Source of the DNA: a virus
Taxonomy: Duplodnaviria; Caudoviricetes
Reading direction: 5' to 3' (one strand)
Length of the DNA: 26,845 nt
IMG/VR virus record: IMGVR_UViG_3300032116_001119
Location: 1 to 26,845 of that record
Position numbers and translations under genes: made by a program. Numbering within the stretch: the first letter of the stretch is position 1; each line of letters begins with the position of its first letter. The notes under the pieces are model-generated. The model was not told the origin of the DNA and did not search any database. It worked only from the letters and a program-made list of their open reading frames with translations. Shown here in pieces: positions 3,436 through 26,845 of this stretch.

Positions 3436-5100
3436 GTGTCAGCCCTGTCGCTTGATGACATCCTCGCCAAACTGACAGCGCTGCCGATCGAGGAGCAGAA
3501 GAAGGCCATCGCCATAGCCGAAGAAGGCACGCGCGGCATGGTCATAGTGCCGAACCCCGGCCCTCAGACCATGGCCTACAACAGCAAGGCTGACTTGCTC
3601 TACTACGGCGGTTCGGCCGGCGGGGGTAAAACGATCCTCCTGCTGGCGCTGGCTGCCAATGAGCACCGGGTCAGCCGCTTGTTTCGCCGGCACTTCAAGG
3701 ACATCGACGGCGAGGGCGGCATGGTTGAGGCCCTGGCGGAGTCGCTGGGCTCCAAGAAGGGCTATAACCTTCAGAAGCACACATGGAAGCTCCCAGAGGA
3801 GCAGACAGCAGGCGTCAAGCGCTCCATCGAGTTCGGTGCATTCACGAACCAGACCGAGGCCGAAGCATATCAAGGCCGCGCGGCTGACTTCCTTGGCTTT
3901 GACGAGGCGGTGCAGTTCCAGGAAGACCTGATCGAGTTCGCCATGGGCTGGAACCGTCCGGCCAAAGGGGTGCCATCTGACCAGCGCTGCCGTGTCGTGC
4001 TGGCATCCAACCCGCCGCTGACACCGGAGGGTCTGTGGATCTTCGACTGGTTTGCGCCGTGGCTGGACCCTGAATATGCTGATCCGCTCAACAAGGGGCC
4101 GGCCCAGCCCGGCGAGCTACGGTGGTTCGCCAAGATCAACGGCGTCACGGTCGAGGTCGAGCATGACTGGGTGGGCCATATCACGGACGCTCAGGGCCGC
4201 GAGATAGAGGTCAGGCCGAAATCCCGCACGTTCATCCCGGCAGCATTGGCAGACAACCCCGACCTGATGGACAGCGATTACGCCAACCAGCTGGCGCTGC
4301 TGCCCCAGCACCTGCAAGACGCGCTGCTTCGGGGCAAGTTTGTCACGACCCTCGATGACGCTGAACGGCAGGTCATCCCGACCGCATGGATACTTGCGGC
4401 GCAGGAACGCTGGATGATCCGCAAGCGCGAGACTGATCCGGCCTCGCCTTACTACAAACCTATGTCGGCGCTTGGCGTGGACGTGGCGTCCGGAGGCGTT
4501 GACCGCATGGTTGCTGTGCCCTTGCACGGGGCGACGTTCGGCCGGCATGTCGTCAAGCCTGGCGCTGAGGTCCGTTCCGGCGGCGAAAAGCTGGCTTTCG
4601 TGGTCAGCGTGGCGCGTGACGATCCCCAGTTCAACGTCGATAACAACGGCTATGGCGACGATTTGTGCTCGGCCCTTGAGAGCAACGAGTTCAACGTCAA
4701 GCGCATCAAGGCCAGCTTCAGCCCGACCCGCAAGGCCCGCGATGGCCGCGAGTTCGAGAACATGCGCGCCCAGCTGGTCTGGGGATTGAGGGAGGCGCTG
4801 GACCCGGTAAACGGGGATAGCGTTGCCCTGCCGCCCGGCCGCGACGTGCTGCTGGAGCTGTCCAGCTTTCAGGAAAAGCCGCGCGAAGACATGCGTAAGG
4901 TCATCCGCATCGAGTCGAACGACGAGATCAAGAAGCGCATTGGCCGCTCACCAGACCTTGCCTGGGGCTACTTCTTTGCATGGGCTGCACCTGATGATCT
5001 GGCCAAGGCCGAGCGCAGGTCGCACGTCTCCAAGCGTGGCAATGCAGGCGCTACACCGCCCATCATCAGGCATCAGGCTAAGAACGTAGGCAGACGTTAA
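3436..5100 (+). CDS. terL: Terminase large subunit
   Basis: 554 aa, GTG start; adenine-binding PNPGPQ, Walker A YGGSAGGGKT, Walker B LGFDEA, coupling motif ASNP, nuclease LGVDVA and GRSPD. Confidence 0.95.
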   Translation: MSALSLDDILAKLTALPIEEQKKAIAIAEEGTRGMVIVPNPGPQTMAYNSKADLLYYGGSAGGGKTILLLALAANEHRVSRLFRRHFKDIDGEGGMVEALAESLGSKKGYNLQKHTWKLPEEQTAGVKRSIEFGAFTNQTEAEAYQGRAADFLGFDEAVQFQEDLIEFAMGWNRPAKGVPSDQRCRVVLASNPPLTPEGLWIFDWFAPWLDPEYADPLNKGPAQPGELRWFAKINGVTVEVEHDWVGHITDAQGREIEVRPKSRTFIPAALADNPDLMDSDYANQLALLPQHLQDALLRGKFVTTLDDAERQVIPTAWILAAQERWMIRKRETDPASPYYKPMSALGVDVASGGVDRMVAVPLHGATFGRHVVKPGAEVRSGGEKLAFVVSVARDDPQFNVDNNGYGDDLCSALESNEFNVKRIKASFSPTRKARDGREFENMRAQLVWGLREALDPVNGDSVALPPGRDVLLELSSFQEKPREDMRKVIRIESNDEIKKRIGRSPDLAWGYFFAWAAPDDLAKAERRSHVSKRGNAGATPPIIRHQAKNVGRR

Positions 5101-17276: not shown

Positions 17277-20200
17277 ATGGCAGATGGCAGCAACTACACT
17301 CTCACCGAAGAAGAAATCCGTGCCGCATCCGAGCGCCTGAAGGCGCAGGAGGACGAGCGGCGTTCATACCGGCAGAAGTCATGGGACATGACCCAGCCGC
17401 CACCGGACCAAGCCGCTGAGGCGCTGGCTCTGGGCGGCAAGTTTGGCGTGCCTCGGCAAGCGGTCGAGGCTGATCCTGACTATTGGCGCCGCCGTGACAA
17501 GGAGGCCCAGGATGCGCTGATGCGCAGCGCCTCGCCGCGCGTCATGGCGTGGATGGACAACGCCGACAACTATGCCGTTGCGAAGGATGACGTAAGCCTC
17601 TGGTCCGACATTGAGCGCGGGTTCGGAGATATGGGCCGGGCATTGGCCGAGAACCCAGCCGGCGCTCTGGTAAAGACCGGCAACAACCTTCGCAGCGCGG
17701 TGCGCTCTGGCTGGTTGTCGATGAACAGCACGACTGCGGACATTGACCGCGAGCAGCTTGAGAAGGCTGCCGCGTACTATGACGCATATGACGAATGGAA
17801 GTCCCGCGAAGACCAGCGCAAGGCCGAGGGCAAAGGCGGCTGGCTGAACCGGATTGCCATGCAGCCGATTACGCCCCGGCTTTACCTGCCCGGCGATTCT
17901 GACCCAATGCCCCAGCCGTCTGACCGGCTGATCCGCGAAGCCATGAAGCCGGGGCAGGCGTCGTGGCAGAAGGTGCTTGGTATTCCGGGGGCTGAGTACC
18001 GCAACGATCCTGCTACGGCGATCAATGCGATCCGTCCCATGATCGAGGATGCCATGCGGGACGCAGTGCGCGTGTCGCAGGAAAAGGACGCCGCTGCCGA
18101 CGCGGCCATGCCGCAGACCGGAAACTTCGTGGCGGATAACCTGCTGGCCGGCATCCGGTCGCTGACTGAAATGGCGCCGCTGGTGGCGTCTGCCATTGCG
18201 ACACGGGGAAAGACTGTGCCGGCTGCCGTGATGGGCGGGCAAGTATACTACAACGAGTTCTCGCGCGGGCGAGATGCCGAGCTTGACCTTTCCGACTCCA
18301 CGAACCGCGCGCTCTTGCAAGCAGGTGTTGAGACGATCTCGGAGCGTATCTCGCTCGGCATCATTGACGACATGCTGAAGTCCGATCGCGGCATAGTCCA
18401 GCGGTTCGTGGGCGGCATGATTGCCGAGCAGGGACAAGAGCAGATTGCCACGATGGGCAGCCGCCTTGTGGACTGGGCCTATCTCGATTCCGACAAGACG
18501 CTGGACCAGTTCCTTGCCGAGACGCCGCGCTCGATGGTGCAGACCTCGCTTGCCACTTTTGTTGCCTCCGCAGGGATGCAGGGAACGTTCCTGGCGGTCG
18601 ATGCGATCACGCAAGGGCTTGCCAAGGAGTCGGTGTTTATCCAGCCCTCTGCAAACGAGAAGCGGCTTTCGACCTTGATCGACAAGGTGAGCGGCGCGAA
18701 ACTCTCCACCCGCTCCCCCGAGAAAGCCGCAGAACTGGCAGGCAGGCTCACTGAAGGCACAGACCTTGAGACTGTCACAGTGGATCTGGACGGCGTGGCG
18801 AGCGCCTTGCAGCAGGCTGGCATTGATCCGGCTGAGGCGTTGTCTGCGCTCGGCGTGACCGAGGAGCAGCTTGCCCAGAAGTACGAGCGGTTCGGTGAAA
18901 TCGAAGTCTCGACGGCTACACTCATCACCTCGCCCCTGATGCGCGAGAACCGGCAGCTGGTCGAGCCGCATGTCAGGGCGGGCAGCGATCAGTACACCCC
19001 GGCCAAGAAAGAAGCGCTGCGCACCGAGTTTGACGCTGAAGTCAAGGACGGCGTGGCGCGGATACAGGAAGCCATCGACGGCGGCCGTGCGCTGGTGGAG
19101 AAGGAACAAGCCGTTGTGGACCGCGTGCGTGAGCGCCTGTCAGGCTCCGGCATGTTTCCCGAGCGCGTCATGCTGGACAAGCAGGTCGCTATTCAGGCCG
19201 CGACGGTGAACACGTTCGCAAAGCGCCTCGGCGTCGATCCGGTCGAGTTCTACGAGCAGCACTTCCCGAAAATCCAGGGCTCCATTGACGGGATGGTGAT
19301 GGAGGAGAATGCGCTGGAGCAGGCCCGCACCGAAGGCTACGAGGGCGAGGACCGGGGCGAGGCTGTTTCATGGCTCGCAGCGAAGCGCAAGGGCCTTGAT
19401 ATGTCCGTTGAGGGTCGGATGGCGCGGGCGAAGGAGATGGGGTTCGATACGGAGACGGTGCTGTATCATGGCACGGACAAAGCAGGCTTCGACAGCTTTG
19501 ACGTAAATGCCCCCGAGAGCGCGCGAAGCGAAGGCGAGGAGGCCGTATTCCTTACAAACAACCCGACGAAGGCGTCAACATTCGCGGGCATTAAAAACCA
19601 AAGCATTATGCCACTTTACGTCCGTGGCCGGATCAAAACACTCAGCGCAGAAGACGTGCCAGAATTGGAAATTGCAGACGGCACCGGCCAAATGGCATAT
19701 CACTCAAAAACATTTTCACGCATCCTCGCGCAAGCCAAAGCGGAAGGCTTTGACGGCGTTCGGTTCAAGAATGTTAACGAAGGCGCGGTTGGCGACCAGA
19801 TCGCCATCTTCGACCCCTCCAACATCCGCAGCGTCCATGCCGCCTTTGATCCGGACAATGCGGGGAGTGCGAACCTGCTGGACCAACTCATCGGCTCGAA
19901 AGCCAAGTCCGCAGACAAGGCCATCCTGAACCGCGCAAAGGCAATGGCGAAGGAGAAGGTCAAGAACGACAAGGGCAAGAAGGTCCCGAAGTACACCCGC
20001 CAGCAAATCTGGGACGAGACGGCGAAGCTGGGCCAGCCTTGGTATCAGGACGACAACGGCGACTGGATCAGCGAGATCGAGGACGGCACGATTGTCGTCA
20101 AGGACGCCAAGGGCCCGCTCAGTGAGGTCATTGAGTTCCCGAGTCTCTATGCTGAGTATCCAGCGCTGACGAAGATGAAGGCTGATACTCGCAGCAAGGT

Positions 20201-23200
20201 AAAGGTGCAGGAAGAGGGGGGTAAAGACTTACCGGGCACCAAAGGTGTGTTCACGCCCAATCCGTTCTTGTTCGGCGCGCACGTACGAATTTCAGACCGG
20301 GGCAAGAACAGCCGCGAATACACCGTCACGCACGAACTGCAGCACGCGGTTGATCATCTCGAAAACCGCGAGATGGGCCGCAACAAGCCATACCTTCTCA
20401 AAGACACCGAGCGGCGTGCGTTCAATACGATGTACCGCCGCCTGTGGACCATGGAAGAACGGATCGCTACCCCGCCATGGAAGACCGAGCAGGAGGCCAT
20501 CGACTGGATGATGGGCCAGCGGGACTTGAATGCCGACGCTGCTAAATTTGCCAAAGACGGAACATTTGATCCCGGTTCGACGATCCGGCCGCCTGAACAG
20601 ACAATGCCGAAGACTCGCGAGGACGAAAACGTCCCTACTGGCGCGCGCGAACGAGACTTGGCAATGCCGAAAGAACTCGTCCGCGGTATCCATTATGGCG
20701 ACCGCGTGCCTCGCGCAGACTTGAAAACCTACGCCCCGCCAGCGGGTTTGCTTGGCCGCACGTTCCTGTCGATCCGCGACCTGATGCGGTCTGCGGCGAA
20801 GAATGAGCGGATTGCGGAGGTTTTGACCGGCCTTCAGAGCCCAGCAAAGGGTGAATATGTTTTTCGTGCTGACTTGCCCAAAGGCACGACTGGTTACGAA
20901 ACCATCCGCACAAAGATAAAAATTGGTGCCAACTTTGAACCGATCGCAATGATTGGGGAGGGAAGCCAACAAGCCGATGAAAGAGTTCGGTCGTTGATGC
21001 AGGCGATCGGGGCGACGCCCGAAGAAGCAGAGGTTTTGAGAATTGCCATCGCCCGCGACATGGAGGGTCCGGACGCTGTTCTGAAGTCACTGGACCAGAT
21101 GGTCAAAAATCGGCCTGACCTGATCAACAATCAGGATGTTGGCAGGCTTCGCGATATGGCGCGCGGCATGTTAAAAACGTTAGGTGAGCCAGAAACGCGA
21201 TATACAGTTCCGCGCACGAAAGCCGAAGAAGCCAAGGAAGCCAAACGCCTCGAAGTCGCGCTGGCCGACAAGCTGCTCGACATGGACAAAACCATCGATC
21301 AGCAGCCTGCAAACGTCCGCACGTTCTTCGAGGAAATGATCGCTGAGCAGCAGTCACGCCCCGACCTGATCGCGGGCGGGTATGACTACACCCAGCCGGG
21401 ATATTTTGACGGCATGACGGCCGGCGCGCTGATGCGCTCGCTTGCTGAGGCGCAATTCTCCGAGTCCGGCATTCGTGACCCGATGATCGCCATGATCCAG
21501 CGTCTTCGCGCTGCTGGCATTGTGGGCGCACGGTATGTGCCGGGCGGGGTCAACACGGCAGAGGATGCCCCGCCACAAACCCAATCCATCGTCATCTTCG
21601 ATGAGCGCGCCCCGGTCCTGCTCACGGACCAGTCCGGCAACCTGATGCAGGAACGCCGCGGCCAGTTCTCCCCCGATACCAACACCGTCACGCTGTTCGA
21701 GCAGAGCGACGTGACCACGATGCTGCACGAGGGCGCGCACTGGTATCTTGACCTTGTGGAGAAAATGGCAAAGGCGCCGGACCCGCATCCGTTCGTGGTC
21801 GAACAATACCAGGCCGTGCAGAAATGGTACGAGGGCGTCAAGAGCACCCCAGCCCTCAAAGCCGCTCGCCTGAACTACAGGATACAGCAACAGGGCAGCA
21901 GCTTTGTGCTCTATGAGAAGGACGGCGCGAAAGAAAAACTGCGCGGCCGCTTCGCATCGCAGGCCGAAGCGGAAGCCCGCATCGACTGGATCGAGATGCA
22001 CGAGACATGGGCCGAGACGTTTGAGGTTTATGTGTATACTGGCAAGGCGCCTTCGGAAGCGCTTCGCAGCACCTTTATTGCTTTCAAGGATTGGATCACA
22101 AAACTCTGGAAGCGCCTGTATGGCAATGGCCAACCTGCCCGCGCAAACCTCAACCCCGAAGTCATCGCCATCATGGACCGGATGCTGGCCGTCGATGAGG
22201 AGATCGATGCTGCGGTTGCTGATGTTTTCATACCCTTTGAGGCACAGGCAAAAGCCCTTCGCGCGCAAGGCGCGCTGACGCAAAAGGAGTATGAAAGAGC
22301 GCTCGCCAACATGGACGACGCCCGTGAGAAGGCCAAGGAAGACTTCGGCGCGCGTGTCATGGCGGACAAGATGCGCGAGGACGAGGCGTGGTGGAACACC
22401 GAGAAGCGCAGGGTGCGGGGCGATGTTGTGCGGGAACTGGACCGCTCACCGATCGGGCGGGCTCTGTCATGGCTGGGCTATGGGCAGTGGAAGGGGGATG
22501 TGCCGGTTGGGGAGACTGAGCAGCAGGATGATGGCGCGGAGTTCTACCAATCCATCCGCGCCGCCACCCGTATGCCGATGCCAGAGGTGGACGCATGGGT
22601 GCGCGATAACGTCTCTGCCAACATCCAGACGTTCCAGAACGGCGATGAAAGCATGATGATGCAATGGCCGCTGACGGAAGACCCGGACGCGCCGACCGTG
22701 CTGATGTCGATCCGCCTGAACCGCAAGGGCCGGGCAGACGTGAACCTGTTCCTCGACAACAAGATGGCCGACGCGCTGGAGAACGTTGAGGACGTGAATG
22801 AGCGCCGGATGCTGGCGACCGAGATGTTCTCGCAGGCGGTCATGGTCATGCGCCAGTATGCGGCCGAGACGCCGGACCTGAAGGCGTTCAATTTCATCGC
22901 GGCTGAGAGCCAGGCCGAAGGCACGAAGGCCAAGTCCCGCGAGGAGCTTTATCGGTTCATGCTTTCCACGCTCAAGCTGGACGGCTATACTGCCTATGAA
23001 GTCACGGGCCAGATGAGCGTGGTGCGTGAGGAAGGCGGGGCCAAGATGGCTGATCCGCTGTTCACGCCGGGCTCAAGTTTCGTTCTGGTCAAAGATGGAG
23101 TTGACGCCAATGAGTTCGCCCGCACCGAAATTCTTCGCGGCTCTCAGAGAGGGGGCAGTGCCGGAGAAGTCGTCACAGCCCTCAAGGCCGTCCAGCTCAC

Positions 23201-26200
23201 TCGTCCCGCCCGTGGAGGAATGGGCCGAGGAGGACGTGAAGCTGGCGGACCTGATACTGGCGGCGTTGTAGGAGACCAAAATGCGCTTAACCAACTGGGA
23301 CCCCAACGCTCCGGAGACCGAGGAAGACGGGATCAAGGCCGAAGGTTTGCGCCGCTTGCGGGTGCGCCAAATGTCCAAGGCGCCAGCGGCCCAGACCAAA
23401 GGCTTGTCCAAGTCGCGGAAAGCTACGCGCAAGCCCAAGGCTTAGACCTTCGCCGGCAGGCTGAATACGCCCGCGTCGATCCAGAGCGCGCTGCCCGGAT
23501 TGCGCAGGCATACGAGGACATGCAGCACGCGCCGAACGATCCGGCTGTACGTGCTGCTTATGAGGACCTGATCCGCCAGACCATTGAGCAGTACCGAGCG
23601 CTTGAGGCGGCCGGCTATCGGTTCTGGTTCTTTGACGAGACCATAGACCCCTATGAAGGCAACCCGTGGAACGCGATGCGGGATCTGCGCGCCAATCAGC
23701 GGATGGGCGTGTTCTCGACTGTTGGAGGTTTTGGCTCCGGCGCCACTGACCTGAATGTGGAAGACAATCCGATGCTGGCAGAGACTGGCATCGAGTGGCC
23801 GGTTGGCTCTCTGGACGGCGAGATGCGTCCGGTACTGGCCAATGACTTGTTCCGCGCCGTGCATGATGCTTTTGGACATGGCCTGGAAGGCGCAGGCTTC
23901 CGCGCACAAGGCGAGGAGAACGCATGGCAGGCGCACGTCCGGCTGTTCACGGGACCGGCCGTGGGCGCCATCACAAGCGAAACACGGGGACAGAATAGCT
24001 GGCTGAACTTCGGCCCGTATGGCGAGGCTAACCGAACGGCCGCTGTCGAAGACACGGTGTTTGCCGATCAGAAGACCGGCCTCATGCCCGAGTGGACATG
24101 GACCGAAGGCCGCGTTCCGGACATGGATGACGGCGTTGTAGATAACTCGCTGGGGCAGCAGGGGGCTGAGCAAAAAACCCTGTTTGTTGCTCACAACACC
24201 AGCGAAGAAAAGCTGCGCAAGACGCTGGAACTGGGCGGCTTCCCGATGCCGTCTCTCGCCGTTGCGCGCACCGACAAGGGTGGGTTCCCGAGCTTCGGGG
24301 AGATCACTTTCCTTGCCGATCCAAAGCTGCTGGATGAGTCGGATGTGACGGCCTACGACGCCGATATCTACTCACCAACCGTGCCGGAAAAATATCCGAA
24401 GGTGAGCCCTGAGAAGGCCGGCGCATTTGTCAAGAAGGCGAAGGCGCTGATCCCGGAAGGCGCGATGATCCCCGAGTATCTGGGGTATGACGAGACCGAC
24501 CGTGATCTTCCTCGCACGCTGATGAATAGCGAACTGGTGCAGCTTGCCTACCTGTCAGAACAGGGCAAGGCGCCGAAGCTCAAGAAGCTCAAAGTGGCCA
24601 AAGAGGTCAAGGCGGCGCTGAAAACCGAATATGAATCGCCGGAACGCGCGGCCTTCGCGTTGGCATATTACACTCGCCTTGATCAGGAACTGAACGCGGC
24701 TCGTGCCGAGAAGGGCATTGAACCGACAAACATCTGGGTCGAGGATGATGGCTCAATCTCTTACCGGAACCAACGCAATTTTGACGACCTGATTTCCGAG
24801 GCGAAGCGCTCGCCATTTGATCAGAAGGCGTACAAATCAGAGCTTTACAACCGGACTATGGGATCGCTTGTTGCCCGCGAGAAGTTCGCCAAGTACACGG
24901 CAGAACTGGCCGGTGAAATCACTGAGAGCTATCGTATTTTCAAAGGCTTCACCTATTCCGGAAACCGCAAGTGGGTGCCGTTCAATCTTGAGAATGTGAT
25001 GGCCGAGATGCGCAAGGACCTGCGCGAAGGTAATCACGACAGCTTTGGTGGCACAGGGTCGATTCGTGCGCGGGTTGGCACTACGGCCATGCCAAAGATG
25101 AAAGACGTGCAGCGCAATCGTGACCGCATCGTTTCAGAAGACGAAATGCGGGCCATCAAAGATCGCCAATCTGAGCGGTTCATGGAACTGGCAAACGACA
25201 TTGCCAAATATTACAAGTTCGCCGCAACAGGCCTTCGCTATTACGACGCCGCTGCTGAGGCGATCGCTCTCGGCCCGAAAGAATGGCGCGAGAGTTTTGC
25301 TGCTGAAGCGCTGCCCGCGATCCGCGCTTATGTCGAAGAACTGAAGGCTCTGCCTACGGAATATTTCGAGGCCAAGGCCAACCGCGTCATGCAACTCGGT
25401 GACTTTGCTGCTGCTGTGGTTCCTCGCAACGTCAGTCCTGACATTCTGCAAGCCATTCGTGCGGCTGGCGTGGACGTTCGCTTCTATAAGCGCGGCGACG
25501 AAGCGGATCGCCTTCGAGCCGTGCAGCAAATGGAAGGTTTACTATTTCAACCCGGCGACCCCAAAGGCTGGGGCGAAACAGCCCCGCCTCCGGACCTCCC
25601 GCCGATGCGCCTCGACCTTGAGGCGACTGAGCGCTTGTATGGCAAGGAAGCCGTGGCCAAGCTGCCCAAGGCGATCCGCGACCGGGGCCGGGACCAGACC
25701 AGCATCGACAGCATGTTCGCCATTGCACGGGCCACTGCAAAGACGCTGCGCCGCAAACCGCCCAAGTCGCTGTTCCAGTTCATCCGGTCCCGCAAGGCCC
25801 GCACCGTCGAAGGCAAGACCGTCCCGGTCAAGCAATGGGGCATCCGTGGCGCGGCTGACGAACTGAAGGCCATGGACCGGGCCGACCTCATCAATGAGGA
25901 AAACGGCATCCATATCGACTACATGCGCGAGCTGGCTGAGGAAGCCGGGTATCTCTCCGAAGGCTCGACGGTCAACGACATGCTGAACGCGATCGACCGC
26001 GAGGCGCGGGGCGAGCCGGTGTATTCGAGCCAGGATCAGAACGAAGTCCTCGACTATCAGAACGCCGAGGAATGGGCGAACTGGTTTGACGAGCAGGGCG
26101 TGGACATCACCGAGAAGGACGAGAAGGCGCTGCGCGCCAAGCTGGCCAAGGTCGTCACCTCGACCGCTGCGGATGCCGTCACGCCGGACCAGGCCGCAGA

Positions 26201-26845
26201 ACTGCTGGGCTTCAACACGGGCGAGGAACTGCTCGCCGCGCTGGCAGAGATCGGCAACCGCGAGCGGTTCATCCAGGCCGAGACGGATCGCCGGATGGCG
26301 GCAGAGTTTGGCGACCCCTACAAGGACGGCACGTTTGCCGAGGCGGCGCGTCAGGCTGCTGAGAGCGAGGTCAAGGCCCGCGCGGCCGAGATCGAACTGG
26401 AAGCGCTGGCGAGGGCCGTGGGCGAGTCTGCTGCGTCGAAGATGGCGAAGCAGATGGCTGAGGAATCGCTTGCTCTGATGACCGTCAAGGAACTGGCGGG
26501 CTGGACGAAGTTCCTCGACGCCGAGCGCCGGCATGGCCGGAACGCTCTGGCTGCCACGAAGAAGGGCGACATGGTGGAGGCCATGCTGCACAAGCGCCGG
26601 CAGCTCGTGTCGATGCACCTTGCCCGGGCGGCCCGCGAGAAGTCCGAAGCGCTCGAGAAGACGCGCAAGGACCTGATGAGCTATCTCACGTCCAAGGGGC
26701 GCCGGGACAAGATCGATAGGGGGTATTTGGATAAGATCGAGGCGCTGCTGGACAGCTACGAACTGCGCGTCTCGAAGCAGGGACCAGGCACCCAGCGCGC
26801 TCGCTTGTCTGCCAAGCAGTATGTCGAGCAGATGATCGCGGACGG
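17277..26845 (+). CDS. Giant polyvalent ejection protein (>3189 aa, 3' partial; T7 gp16 position)
   Basis: ATG 17277; the same frame is open to the window end. Contains YHGT ART-like (19464), HELQH (20331), HEGAH (21726), HDAFGH (23862) and HN...EYFEAK (24192-25376) modules. Confidence 0.93.
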   Translation, partial: MADGSNYTLTEEEIRAASERLKAQEDERRSYRQKSWDMTQPPPDQAAEALALGGKFGVPRQAVEADPDYWRRRDKEAQDALMRSASPRVMAWMDNADNYAVAKDDVSLWSDIERGFGDMGRALAENPAGALVKTGNNLRSAVRSGWLSMNSTTADIDREQLEKAAAYYDAYDEWKSREDQRKAEGKGGWLNRIAMQPITPRLYLPGDSDPMPQPSDRLIREAMKPGQASWQKVLGIPGAEYRNDPATAINAIRPMIEDAMRDAVRVSQEKDAAADAAMPQTGNFVADNLLAGIRSLTEMAPLVASAIATRGKTVPAAVMGGQVYYNEFSRGRDAELDLSDSTNRALLQAGVETISERISLGIIDDMLKSDRGIVQRFVGGMIAEQGQEQIATMGSRLVDWAYLDSDKTLDQFLAETPRSMVQTSLATFVASAGMQGTFLAVDAITQGLAKESVFIQPSANEKRLSTLIDKVSGAKLSTRSPEKAAELAGRLTEGTDLETVTVDLDGVASALQQAGIDPAEALSALGVTEEQLAQKYERFGEIEVSTATLITSPLMRENRQLVEPHVRAGSDQYTPAKKEALRTEFDAEVKDGVARIQEAIDGGRALVEKEQAVVDRVRERLSGSGMFPERVMLDKQVAIQAATVNTFAKRLGVDPVEFYEQHFPKIQGSIDGMVMEENALEQARTEGYEGEDRGEAVSWLAAKRKGLDMSVEGRMARAKEMGFDTETVLYHGTDKAGFDSFDVNAPESARSEGEEAVFLTNNPTKASTFAGIKNQSIMPLYVRGRIKTLSAEDVPELEIADGTGQMAYHSKTFSRILAQAKAEGFDGVRFKNVNEGAVGDQIAIFDPSNIRSVHAAFDPDNAGSANLLDQLIGSKAKSADKAILNRAKAMAKEKVKNDKGKKVPKYTRQQIWDETAKLGQPWYQDDNGDWISEIEDGTIVVKDAKGPLSEVIEFPSLYAEYPALTKMKADTRSKVKVQEEGGKDLPGTKGVFTPNPFLFGAHVRISDRGKNSREYTVTHELQHAVDHLENREMGRNKPYLLKDTERRAFNTMYRRLWTMEERIATPPWKTEQEAIDWMMGQRDLNADAAKFAKDGTFDPGSTIRPPEQTMPKTREDENVPTGARERDLAMPKELVRGIHYGDRVPRADLKTYAPPAGLLGRTFLSIRDLMRSAAKNERIAEVLTGLQSPAKGEYVFRADLPKGTTGYETIRTKIKIGANFEPIAMIGEGSQQADERVRSLMQAIGATPEEAEVLRIAIARDMEGPDAVLKSLDQMVKNRPDLINNQDVGRLRDMARGMLKTLGEPETRYTVPRTKAEEAKEAKRLEVALADKLLDMDKTIDQQPANVRTFFEEMIAEQQSRPDLIAGGYDYTQPGYFDGMTAGALMRSLAEAQFSESGIRDPMIAMIQRLRAAGIVGARYVPGGVNTAEDAPPQTQSIVIFDERAPVLLTDQSGNLMQERRGQFSPDTNTVTLFEQSDVTTMLHEGAHWYLDLVEKMAKAPDPHPFVVEQYQAVQKWYEGVKSTPALKAARLNYRIQQQGSSFVLYEKDGAKEKLRGRFASQAEAEARIDWIEMHETWAETFEVYVYTGKAPSEALRSTFIAFKDWITKLWKRLYGNGQPARANLNPEVIAIMDRMLAVDEEIDAAVADVFIPFEAQAKALRAQGALTQKEYERALANMDDAREKAKEDFGARVMADKMREDEAWWNTEKRRVRGDVVRELDRSPIGRALSWLGYGQWKGDVPVGETEQQDDGAEFYQSIRAATRMPMPEVDAWVRDNVSANIQTFQNGDESMMMQWPLTEDPDAPTVLMSIRLNRKGRADVNLFLDNKMADALENVEDVNERRMLATEMFSQAVMVMRQYAAETPDLKAFNFIAAESQAEGTKAKSREELYRFMLSTLKLDGYTAYEVTGQMSVVREEGGAKMADPLFTPGSSFVLVKDGVDANEFARTEILRGSQRGGSAGEVVTALKAVQLTRPARGGMGRGGREAGGPDTGGVVGDQNALNQLGPQRSGDRGRRDQGRRFAPLAGAPNVQGASGPDQRLVQVAESYAQAQGLDLRRQAEYARVDPERAARIAQAYEDMQHAPNDPAVRAAYEDLIRQTIEQYRALEAAGYRFWFFDETIDPYEGNPWNAMRDLRANQRMGVFSTVGGFGSGATDLNVEDNPMLAETGIEWPVGSLDGEMRPVLANDLFRAVHDAFGHGLEGAGFRAQGEENAWQAHVRLFTGPAVGAITSETRGQNSWLNFGPYGEANRTAAVEDTVFADQKTGLMPEWTWTEGRVPDMDDGVVDNSLGQQGAEQKTLFVAHNTSEEKLRKTLELGGFPMPSLAVARTDKGGFPSFGEITFLADPKLLDESDVTAYDADIYSPTVPEKYPKVSPEKAGAFVKKAKALIPEGAMIPEYLGYDETDRDLPRTLMNSELVQLAYLSEQGKAPKLKKLKVAKEVKAALKTEYESPERAAFALAYYTRLDQELNAARAEKGIEPTNIWVEDDGSISYRNQRNFDDLISEAKRSPFDQKAYKSELYNRTMGSLVAREKFAKYTAELAGEITESYRIFKGFTYSGNRKWVPFNLENVMAEMRKDLREGNHDSFGGTGSIRARVGTTAMPKMKDVQRNRDRIVSEDEMRAIKDRQSERFMELANDIAKYYKFAATGLRYYDAAAEAIALGPKEWRESFAAEALPAIRAYVEELKALPTEYFEAKANRVMQLGDFAAAVVPRNVSPDILQAIRAAGVDVRFYKRGDEADRLRAVQQMEGLLFQPGDPKGWGETAPPPDLPPMRLDLEATERLYGKEAVAKLPKAIRDRGRDQTSIDSMFAIARATAKTLRRKPPKSLFQFIRSRKARTVEGKTVPVKQWGIRGAADELKAMDRADLINEENGIHIDYMRELAEEAGYLSEGSTVNDMLNAIDREARGEPVYSSQDQNEVLDYQNAEEWANWFDEQGVDITEKDEKALRAKLAKVVTSTAADAVTPDQAAELLGFNTGEELLAALAEIGNRERFIQAETDRRMAAEFGDPYKDGTFAEAARQAAESEVKARAAEIELEALARAVGESAASKMAKQMAEESLALMTVKELAGWTKFLDAERRHGRNALAATKKGDMVEAMLHKRRQLVSMHLARAAREKSEALEKTRKDLMSYLTSKGRRDKIDRGYLDKIEALLDSYELRVSKQGPGTQRARLSAKQYVEQMIAD
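23110..23271 (+). CDS. Putative overprinted 53 aa ORF in the +1 frame of the giant gene
   Basis: GGAG 23097-23100; 3' half uses typical codons (GTG GAG GAA TGG GCC GAG GAG GAC GTG AAG CTG GCG GAC CTG). Confidence 0.45.
   Translation: MSSPAPKFFAALREGAVPEKSSQPSRPSSSLVPPVEEWAEEDVKLADLILAAL
23281..23445 (+). CDS. Putative overprinted 54 aa ORF in the +1 frame of the giant gene
   Basis: AGGAG 23270-23274, 6 nt before ATG; MRLTNWDPNAPETEEDGIKAEGLRRLRVRQMSKAPAAQTKGLSKSRKATRKPKA. Confidence 0.5.
   Translation: MRLTNWDPNAPETEEDGIKAEGLRRLRVRQMSKAPAAQTKGLSKSRKATRKPKA

Follow-up and report, generated by a model that had tools for sequence, protein, structure and literature searches.

Do two short open reading frames (ORFs) lying out of frame inside a giant phage gene encode proteins of their own, and to which part of that gene do they belong? 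The question is raised by the IMG/VR virus record IMGVR_UViG_3300032116_001119 (Duplodnaviria; Caudoviricetes), whose 26,845 nucleotides are referred to here as the window. At one module border of the giant gene, a Gly/Arg-rich linker is overprinted by ORF1 and ORF2, both of which lie wholly inside the giant ORF, on the same strand and in an alternative frame. From comparisons among homologous loci, we conclude that ORF1 and ORF2 are very probably real, independently translated genes.

Two ORFs nested in a polyvalent-protein gene

The giant ORF encodes a virion protein of the polyvalent class described by Iyer et al. 2017 (PMC5512222), because its PBECR5 (63.9 bits), ART-PolyVal (46.9 bits), and LPD22 (44.1 bits) domains all pass the curated Pfam cutoffs; an HExxH motif is also present. 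Module borders in the protein are marked by short Lx-Q motifs (EFYQ, NALNQ, and SLGQ), which delimit the cassettes listed below together with the nested ORFs and their Shine-Dalgarno (SD)-like sites.

17277..26843, plus strand: giant virion polyvalent-protein gene, 3189+ amino acids (aa), open at its 3′ end, where it leaves the window
22551..23294, plus strand: upstream cassette, starting just behind the EFYQ junction and extending to NALNQ; it comprises an alpha/beta domain of ~215 aa and, after it, a Gly/Arg tail
23097..23100, plus strand: GGAG SD-like site of ORF1, 9 nt before the first ATG; GGAG in locus L081 and GGGG in locus L083
23110..23271, plus strand: nested ORF1, +1 frame, 53 aa, with a conserved acidic/hydrophobic C-terminal segment (LVPPVEEW..ED..LA.LILAAL); part of the upstream cassette
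23270..23274, plus strand: AGGAG SD-like site of ORF2, 6 nt before the second ATG, with 2 nt shared with the ORF1 TAG (23269-23271)
23280..23294, plus strand: NALNQ cassette junction in the main frame, an Lx-Q-type motif that recurs at module borders
23281..23445, plus strand: nested ORF2, +1 frame, 54 aa, with a conserved core, (P)ETE(E/Q)DG...EALRRL, at ~23311-23367; part of the downstream cassette
23295..24158, plus strand: downstream cassette, a short Gly/Arg linker and then a domain of ~260 aa from PLxGAP (23352), ending at the SLGQ junction

A first-pass annotation of the window had placed both ORFs one base ahead of the giant frame, each behind its SD-like site and with the second site overlapping the stop codon of ORF1, and all of this was found as described. 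The strength of the two sites is unremarkable, since they rank 8 and 12 among 85 out-of-frame ATGs. The same annotation had the ORFs straddling NALNQ. They do flank and enter the junction, but more exactly ORF1 stops 8 nt short of it and ORF2 begins within its first codon. The upstream domain's folded end is covered by the first half of ORF1, and the start of the downstream domain by the second half of ORF2; the true linker is therefore restricted to ~23190-23345.

Codon usage separates the two frames as the first-pass annotation had proposed, with rare codons in the Gly/Arg linker and GC-rich third positions in the +1 frame. Over 23109-23447, the main frame has a GC content at third codon positions (GC3) of 0.51 and a codon adaptation index (CAI) of 0.39, versus a GC3 of 0.80 and a CAI of 0.59-0.60 for the ORF1 and ORF2 codons. 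GGA accounts for 10 of the 113 main-frame codons in this interval versus 4.5 per 1000 elsewhere, and CGA, AGA, and AGG occur 3, 2, and 2 times, respectively. When the giant gene was scanned with a sliding window of 30 codons, the nested region was the sole long stretch in which another frame scored above the main one (6 successive windows). A weak stretch of two windows with the +1 frame above the main frame was also seen near an LLFQ junction (approximately 25467-25600), where no SD-started ATG ORF is listed.

Two trivial sources of the signal were ruled out. An assembly frameshift is contradicted by a contig of run X1, possibly the source of the window DNA, which is identical over all 1901 bases tested; a contig of 352 bases from a different study (run X9) matches 23147-23498 with 0 differences. 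The idea that either SD-like site serves an internal, in-frame start of the giant protein was also rejected: within 23100-23470, the main frame has a single start codon, the ATG at 23220, whose SD is weak (-2.8 kcal/mol). In GenBank, the giant coding sequence alone is annotated over the nested peptides of L089, L091, and L092. Although 56 database proteins match ORF2, they are mostly gene calls on short contigs and were not taken as evidence of expression.

Selection in the +1 frame

Loci for ORF2 were gathered with a scan for the downstream domain, from which the best 80 of 403 relatives were used. With the window added, PLxGAP served as an anchor in 78, of which 59 were non-redundant at 90% nucleotide identity. 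Around the anchor, from codon -21 to codon +15, the +1 frame is open in 54 of the 59 loci and has one stop in each of the other 5, which were left out of the stop and Glu statistics for ORF2; these carry a variant peptide that is shifted upstream and ends at or just before the start of the domain. When the main frame was recoded synonymously, with codon usage taken from the respective locus, 30.0 stops were predicted in the +1 frame of the 54 loci, and 0 were observed. For codons 0 to 15, 18.7 stops were expected, with 0 observed in the 54 loci and 1 in all 59. Three control windows within the downstream domain gave 72, 31, and 41 stops for 72.9, 43.5, and 41.5 expected, respectively. Beyond stops, the +1 frame retains particular residues: Glu occurs at codon -14 in 51/54 loci (8.5 expected) and at codon -12 in 54/54 (8.1 expected), while the main frame alternates between Gly and Arg at these positions. 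The most variable base over the ORF2 motif is position 1 of the main-frame codon, i.e., the wobble position of the +1 frame. The ORF2 core was recovered in 79/80 domain loci with a profile built partly from these same sequences, the single miss being a cut contig. Taken together, these patterns indicate that ORF2 is under purifying selection as a protein in the +1 frame.

Material for ORF1 is scarcer. Besides the window, just two DNA copies of the upstream cassette turned up (L081 and L083), and both keep the ATG and the stop of ORF1 (3/3 with the window). Over the last 22 codons of ORF1, identity among the three copies is 77-82% in the +1 frame versus 32-68% in the main frame, which points to selection on ORF1 as a protein in its C-terminal half. 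A search for more DNA copies of this cassette returned only the near-identical L082 from the metagenome scan and none from the genome scan or the near-length protein search. Among 13 protein-only matches to the upstream cassette, 12 are full length; all 12 have Gly/Arg-rich tail ends, and 11 of these tails could spell the ORF1 end motif in the +1 frame (background, 0.035 per 50 residues). The outcome that the first-pass annotation had named as telling against the ORFs, namely, +1 stops in close homologs together with no start signal at 23110 or 23281, was looked for and did not occur.

Could the +1 signal instead be the shadow of main-frame constraint, or the tail of a programmed frameshift, rather than separate genes? 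Main-frame coding largely fixes the C-terminal half of ORF2 and likewise the N-terminal half of ORF1, and 17/54 loci have a +1 frame that stays open well upstream without an SD-led start close by. Nevertheless, the +1 Glu stays while the main frame swaps Gly and Arg, and in many loci a +1 stop lies 0 to 15 nt before the ORF2 start codon, so that entry is possible only at that start and upstream entry is excluded. We therefore regard a shadow or a frameshift as very improbable. Much the same holds for the idea that the ORFs are relics, i.e., former neighbors of the domain at its capture into the giant ORF that are now unexpressed or decaying. Their starts, lengths, and fusions vary, and some lineages lack the gene. 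Against this, purifying selection in the +1 frame is ongoing in loci whose GC content, among those displayed, spans roughly 37-69%, and no free-standing version occurs among the loci fetched, making decay hardly credible.

Several points nonetheless limit this evidence. The loci are related to one another, and the counts refer to sequences and not to independent events. An SD-like 4- to 5-mer followed by ATG or GTG within 45 codons was found in 37/54 loci with a pattern that is permissive and was used without a control; in several of the other loci, ORF2 runs on from an upstream nested ORF. The conserved core of ORF2 is only ~20 aa long, with variable ends. In the first 27 codons of ORF1, it is the main frame that is better kept (81-85% versus 67-81% in the +1 frame). 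The result for the protein-only tails is supporting only, because the motif was picked after seeing the data and the sequences are proteins without DNA. Even so, two independently translated genes remain by far the preferred reading, and the Gly/Arg linker itself is a by-product of selection on +1 amino acids. At least here, such a "low-complexity linker" of a giant phage protein is the shadow of small genes overlooked by annotation.

Linkage of each nested ORF to its cassette

If the ORFs are genes, their company across loci should tell where they belong. ORF1 occurs with the upstream cassette in 3/3 DNA copies, followed by three different downstream cassettes, and in L081 and L083 it stands without ORF2. 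ORF2, for its part, is found behind 27 upstream-cassette clusters among the 59 loci, either alone, in tandem with, or fused to other nested ORFs. A fixed two-gene operon, as the first-pass annotation had suggested, was thus ruled out, and the arrangement in the window is an accident of which cassettes meet here. A reciprocal search from the ORF2 core placed it, in 59/59 loci, nested directly before the same downstream domain, which carries an invariant HDxxGH motif (23862-23879 in the window) and GEE; the query overlaps the start of this domain by a few codons, which biases the search toward it. In L054 (2800-4650, the same contig as L195), the HDxxGH cassette and ORF2 were copied together in a tandem duplication, although an assembly repeat is also possible. 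These distributions indicate that ORF1 is part of the upstream cassette and that ORF2 goes with the downstream HDxxGH cassette. With frame-specific selection and cassette-specific linkage seen for both ORFs, the proposal that the nested genes travel with the adjacent cargo cassettes was upheld. The same two cassettes also occur in the same order, with an NALFQ junction, in another giant protein (P0057, residues ~1871-2180).

A distant clade of the downstream domain (clade B, ~50% domain identity) has a different conserved +1 peptide in the same slot before the same domain in 41/42 loci, the exception being a weak, non-nested match. No homology between ORF2 and this peptide was detectable with hhalign (probability 2.6). 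A nested gene resembling that of clade B is also present in Planktothrix phage Pag-Yong1 (L089).

L092:1349-1486, with L094-L107 and L111-L151: clade-B nested peptide in phages with GG-type linker motifs, unannotated in MW202675.1

Nested ORFs are not restricted to these two families. Over 60 loci, 63 of 275 SD-started +1 ORFs scored above the main frame versus 0 of 46 in the +2 frame, and many of the 63 are ORF2 itself. Other cassettes have further candidate +1 families at their 3′ ends, of which some stop just before ORF2 and some are fused to it. They fall into the locus groups L001, L063, L064, and L068 (~70 codons before the PLxGAP anchor); L002, L006, and L021; L007, L017, L022, and L042; L028, L034, L043, and L055; L019, L037, and L054; and L016. 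L050 has a PETEED-type sequence in the +1 frame directly behind the HDxxGH domain (~3690-3790), with no ATG visible ahead of it. A tblastn search of isolated phages with the peptide cores was insensitive and overlooked the ORF2 homolog of L091.

Two other readings accept translation and interpret the linkage differently. According to the first, the peptides are autonomous accessory products with host or phage targets of their own, for instance in counter-defense or late regulation; the linker is then the sole place that tolerates a second frame, and the association with a cassette follows from the overlap alone. Homologs of the domain without a nested gene and two apparently unrelated peptides in the same slot speak for this, and the frequent fusion of ORF2 behind other nested ORFs suits a small autonomous motif. 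An autonomous gene, however, would be expected to turn up beside other modules or free-standing, yet all of the ORF2 loci and all but one of the clade-B loci have the peptide before the same domain, and the variants that end ahead of the domain start stay with that domain nonetheless. We consider autonomous peptides unlikely. According to the second, the peptides target the entire giant protein, affecting its assembly, its packaging, or the control of Lx-Q cleavage, or else internal translation tunes its synthesis. The nested ORFs do cluster at junctions, the junction codons themselves supply the ORF2 SD in many homologs, and polyvalent proteins have been proposed to undergo processing by their own zincin-like peptidases (PMC5512222). 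At most junctions, however, nested genes are lacking: in nearly every locus viewed this is true of the border that follows the HDxxGH domain, and in the window protein it is true of the remaining junctions; moreover, the peptide families vary by cassette, and specific residues are kept beyond a mere open frame. An action on the whole protein is thus distinctly improbable.

Putative roles, known systems, and the two domains

The reading that we prefer, that each peptide serves its own module, may be put as follows. The giant ORF comes last in a tailed-phage gene order in the window (terminase, portal, major capsid, tail, and internal-virion-protein genes), and, judging from its family and gene position, the giant protein is putatively packaged and injected with the DNA. 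On the late mRNA, 23110 and 23281 would each serve ribosomes as an independent start, and ORF2 might also be translated by re-initiation, since its SD overlaps the ORF1 stop. Recombination at Lx-Q junctions would move a domain and its peptide gene as a single unit. In the producing cell, the short acidic-then-helical cores might bind their cognate domain, and the peptides might be left behind or released once the giant protein is packaged, cut, and injected. That each peptide binds its own module as an inhibitor or chaperone during virion production is a guess, slightly likelier to be wrong than right. More tentative still is its extension to polyvalent proteins as two-layer cassette systems, in which a cargo domain can carry an antidote or chaperone gene overprinted on its linker. 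If this were true, domain shuffling would move effector and antidote together, the +1 frame would contain a further repertoire of microproteins, cassette specific and missing from annotations, some of them joined into a shadow polyprotein, and the hidden peptides would be ready-made specific inhibitors revealing what orphan cargo domains do. At stake is how a phage manufactures and packages a multi-effector protein without harm to the producing cell. A peptide linked one-to-one with a domain would also give a handle on two domain families without a recognized fold or function.

This partnership has to be set against other observations. Linkage alone is not proof of it, because the overlap partly forces the pair to travel together: ORF2 lies on the first 20 to 45 codons of its domain and ORF1 on the last 25 to 30 of its own. 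L088, L090, L108, and L109 have the HDxxGH domain directly abutting the preceding module, without a linker or a visible nested gene, and actinophages carry it in smaller proteins that likewise lack one; HDxxGH is intact in all of these. The peptide is therefore not obligatory, absence being judged directly before the domain, so that a partner elsewhere in those genomes is possible. Furthermore, no activity is known for either domain, nor any need to restrain it.

Small genes embedded on the same strand of another gene are familiar from phages, e.g., Rz1 within Rz in lambda and B within A and E within D in phiX174. As in those cases, the ORFs described here are very probably complete small genes in an alternative frame of the same strand, with putative start signals of their own. 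The classical pairs are fixed, whereas here the nested gene is mobile with a polyprotein cassette, cassette specific, and able to fuse with that of the next cassette. An Rz/Rz1 spanin pair was itself rejected, as the signal-peptide cysteine is missing; the translations of both peptides are devoid of Cys, and neither is therefore an o-spanin-like lipoprotein. In polymorphic toxin/immunity cassettes, including the MuF toxins of phages, the immunity gene is separate and lies downstream of the terminal toxin domain. Those cassettes likewise combine an exchangeable effector-like domain with a small dedicated gene, co-movement being partly forced by overlap in the present case. They differ in that the present genes overlie internal linkers, ORF1 behind its domain and ORF2 ahead of its own, and that toxicity and binding are hypothetical. 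The small gene also does not always accompany the domain, as it would in an effector-immunity pair, given the four linker-less loci and the solo forms of actinophages.

Polyvalent proteins of phages and conjugative elements, as presented in the passages of PMC5512222 consulted, are alike in their LPD22, ART-PolyVal, and PBECR5 domains, shuffled modules, and virion-gene neighborhood. In the main text of that paper, "overlap" and "linker" are absent and both uses of "nested" refer to a hairpin, and those passages mention no out-of-frame genes. A full-text literature search, together with passages of PMC5512222 and PMC7824862, likewise gave no nested genes in polyvalent proteins; supplements and most subscription papers lay outside its scope. 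Embedded genes and effector-immunity cassettes are thus already known, and what appears new is the reciprocal linkage to cassettes, the replacement of one peptide by another before the same domain, and fusion across junctions.

Searches of Pfam, NCBIfam, and PADLOC with both peptides and both domains, and sequence searches of the PDB, gave nothing credible. PHROGs returned phrog_3170 alone, a family of unknown function, for the downstream domain, the upstream domain being covered only to 23108. The model of the downstream domain (predicted local distance difference test [pLDDT], 87.6) had no Foldseek match at an E value of ≤0.001 in the PDB, which proves neither novelty nor difference; the best VIA Z was 2.5, and a metallopeptidase had a Z of 2.0 (root mean square deviation, 5.1; 87 aligned). 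The HExxH motif of zincin-like metallopeptidases is absent from this domain, whose invariant motif is HDxxGH followed by GEE. Its invariant His, Asp, and Glu residues suggest that it may be an enzyme. The upstream domain is modeled as an alpha/beta fold (pLDDT, 77) with a possibly GNAT-like topology. The ESM Atlas contributed unnamed viral clusters only, plus DUF6934 (0.89) as a lead.

Distant homologs of the HDxxGH domain were observed in Bixzunavirus mycobacteriophages (199 Mycobacterium phage records matched), Gordonia phage Skog, and Streptomyces phage Dagobah.

L086:454-3634: distant HDxxGH-domain homolog
L093:1392-2267: distant HDxxGH-domain homolog
L087:1734-2300: distant HDxxGH-domain homolog

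An N-terminal TAREQFEML motif is common to two adjacent Rizal proteins, and a similar one is present in the Skog protein. Finally, a loop of the HDxxGH domain accommodates an additional in-frame domain of ~100 aa in L172, L191, and L201 (~1640-1960).

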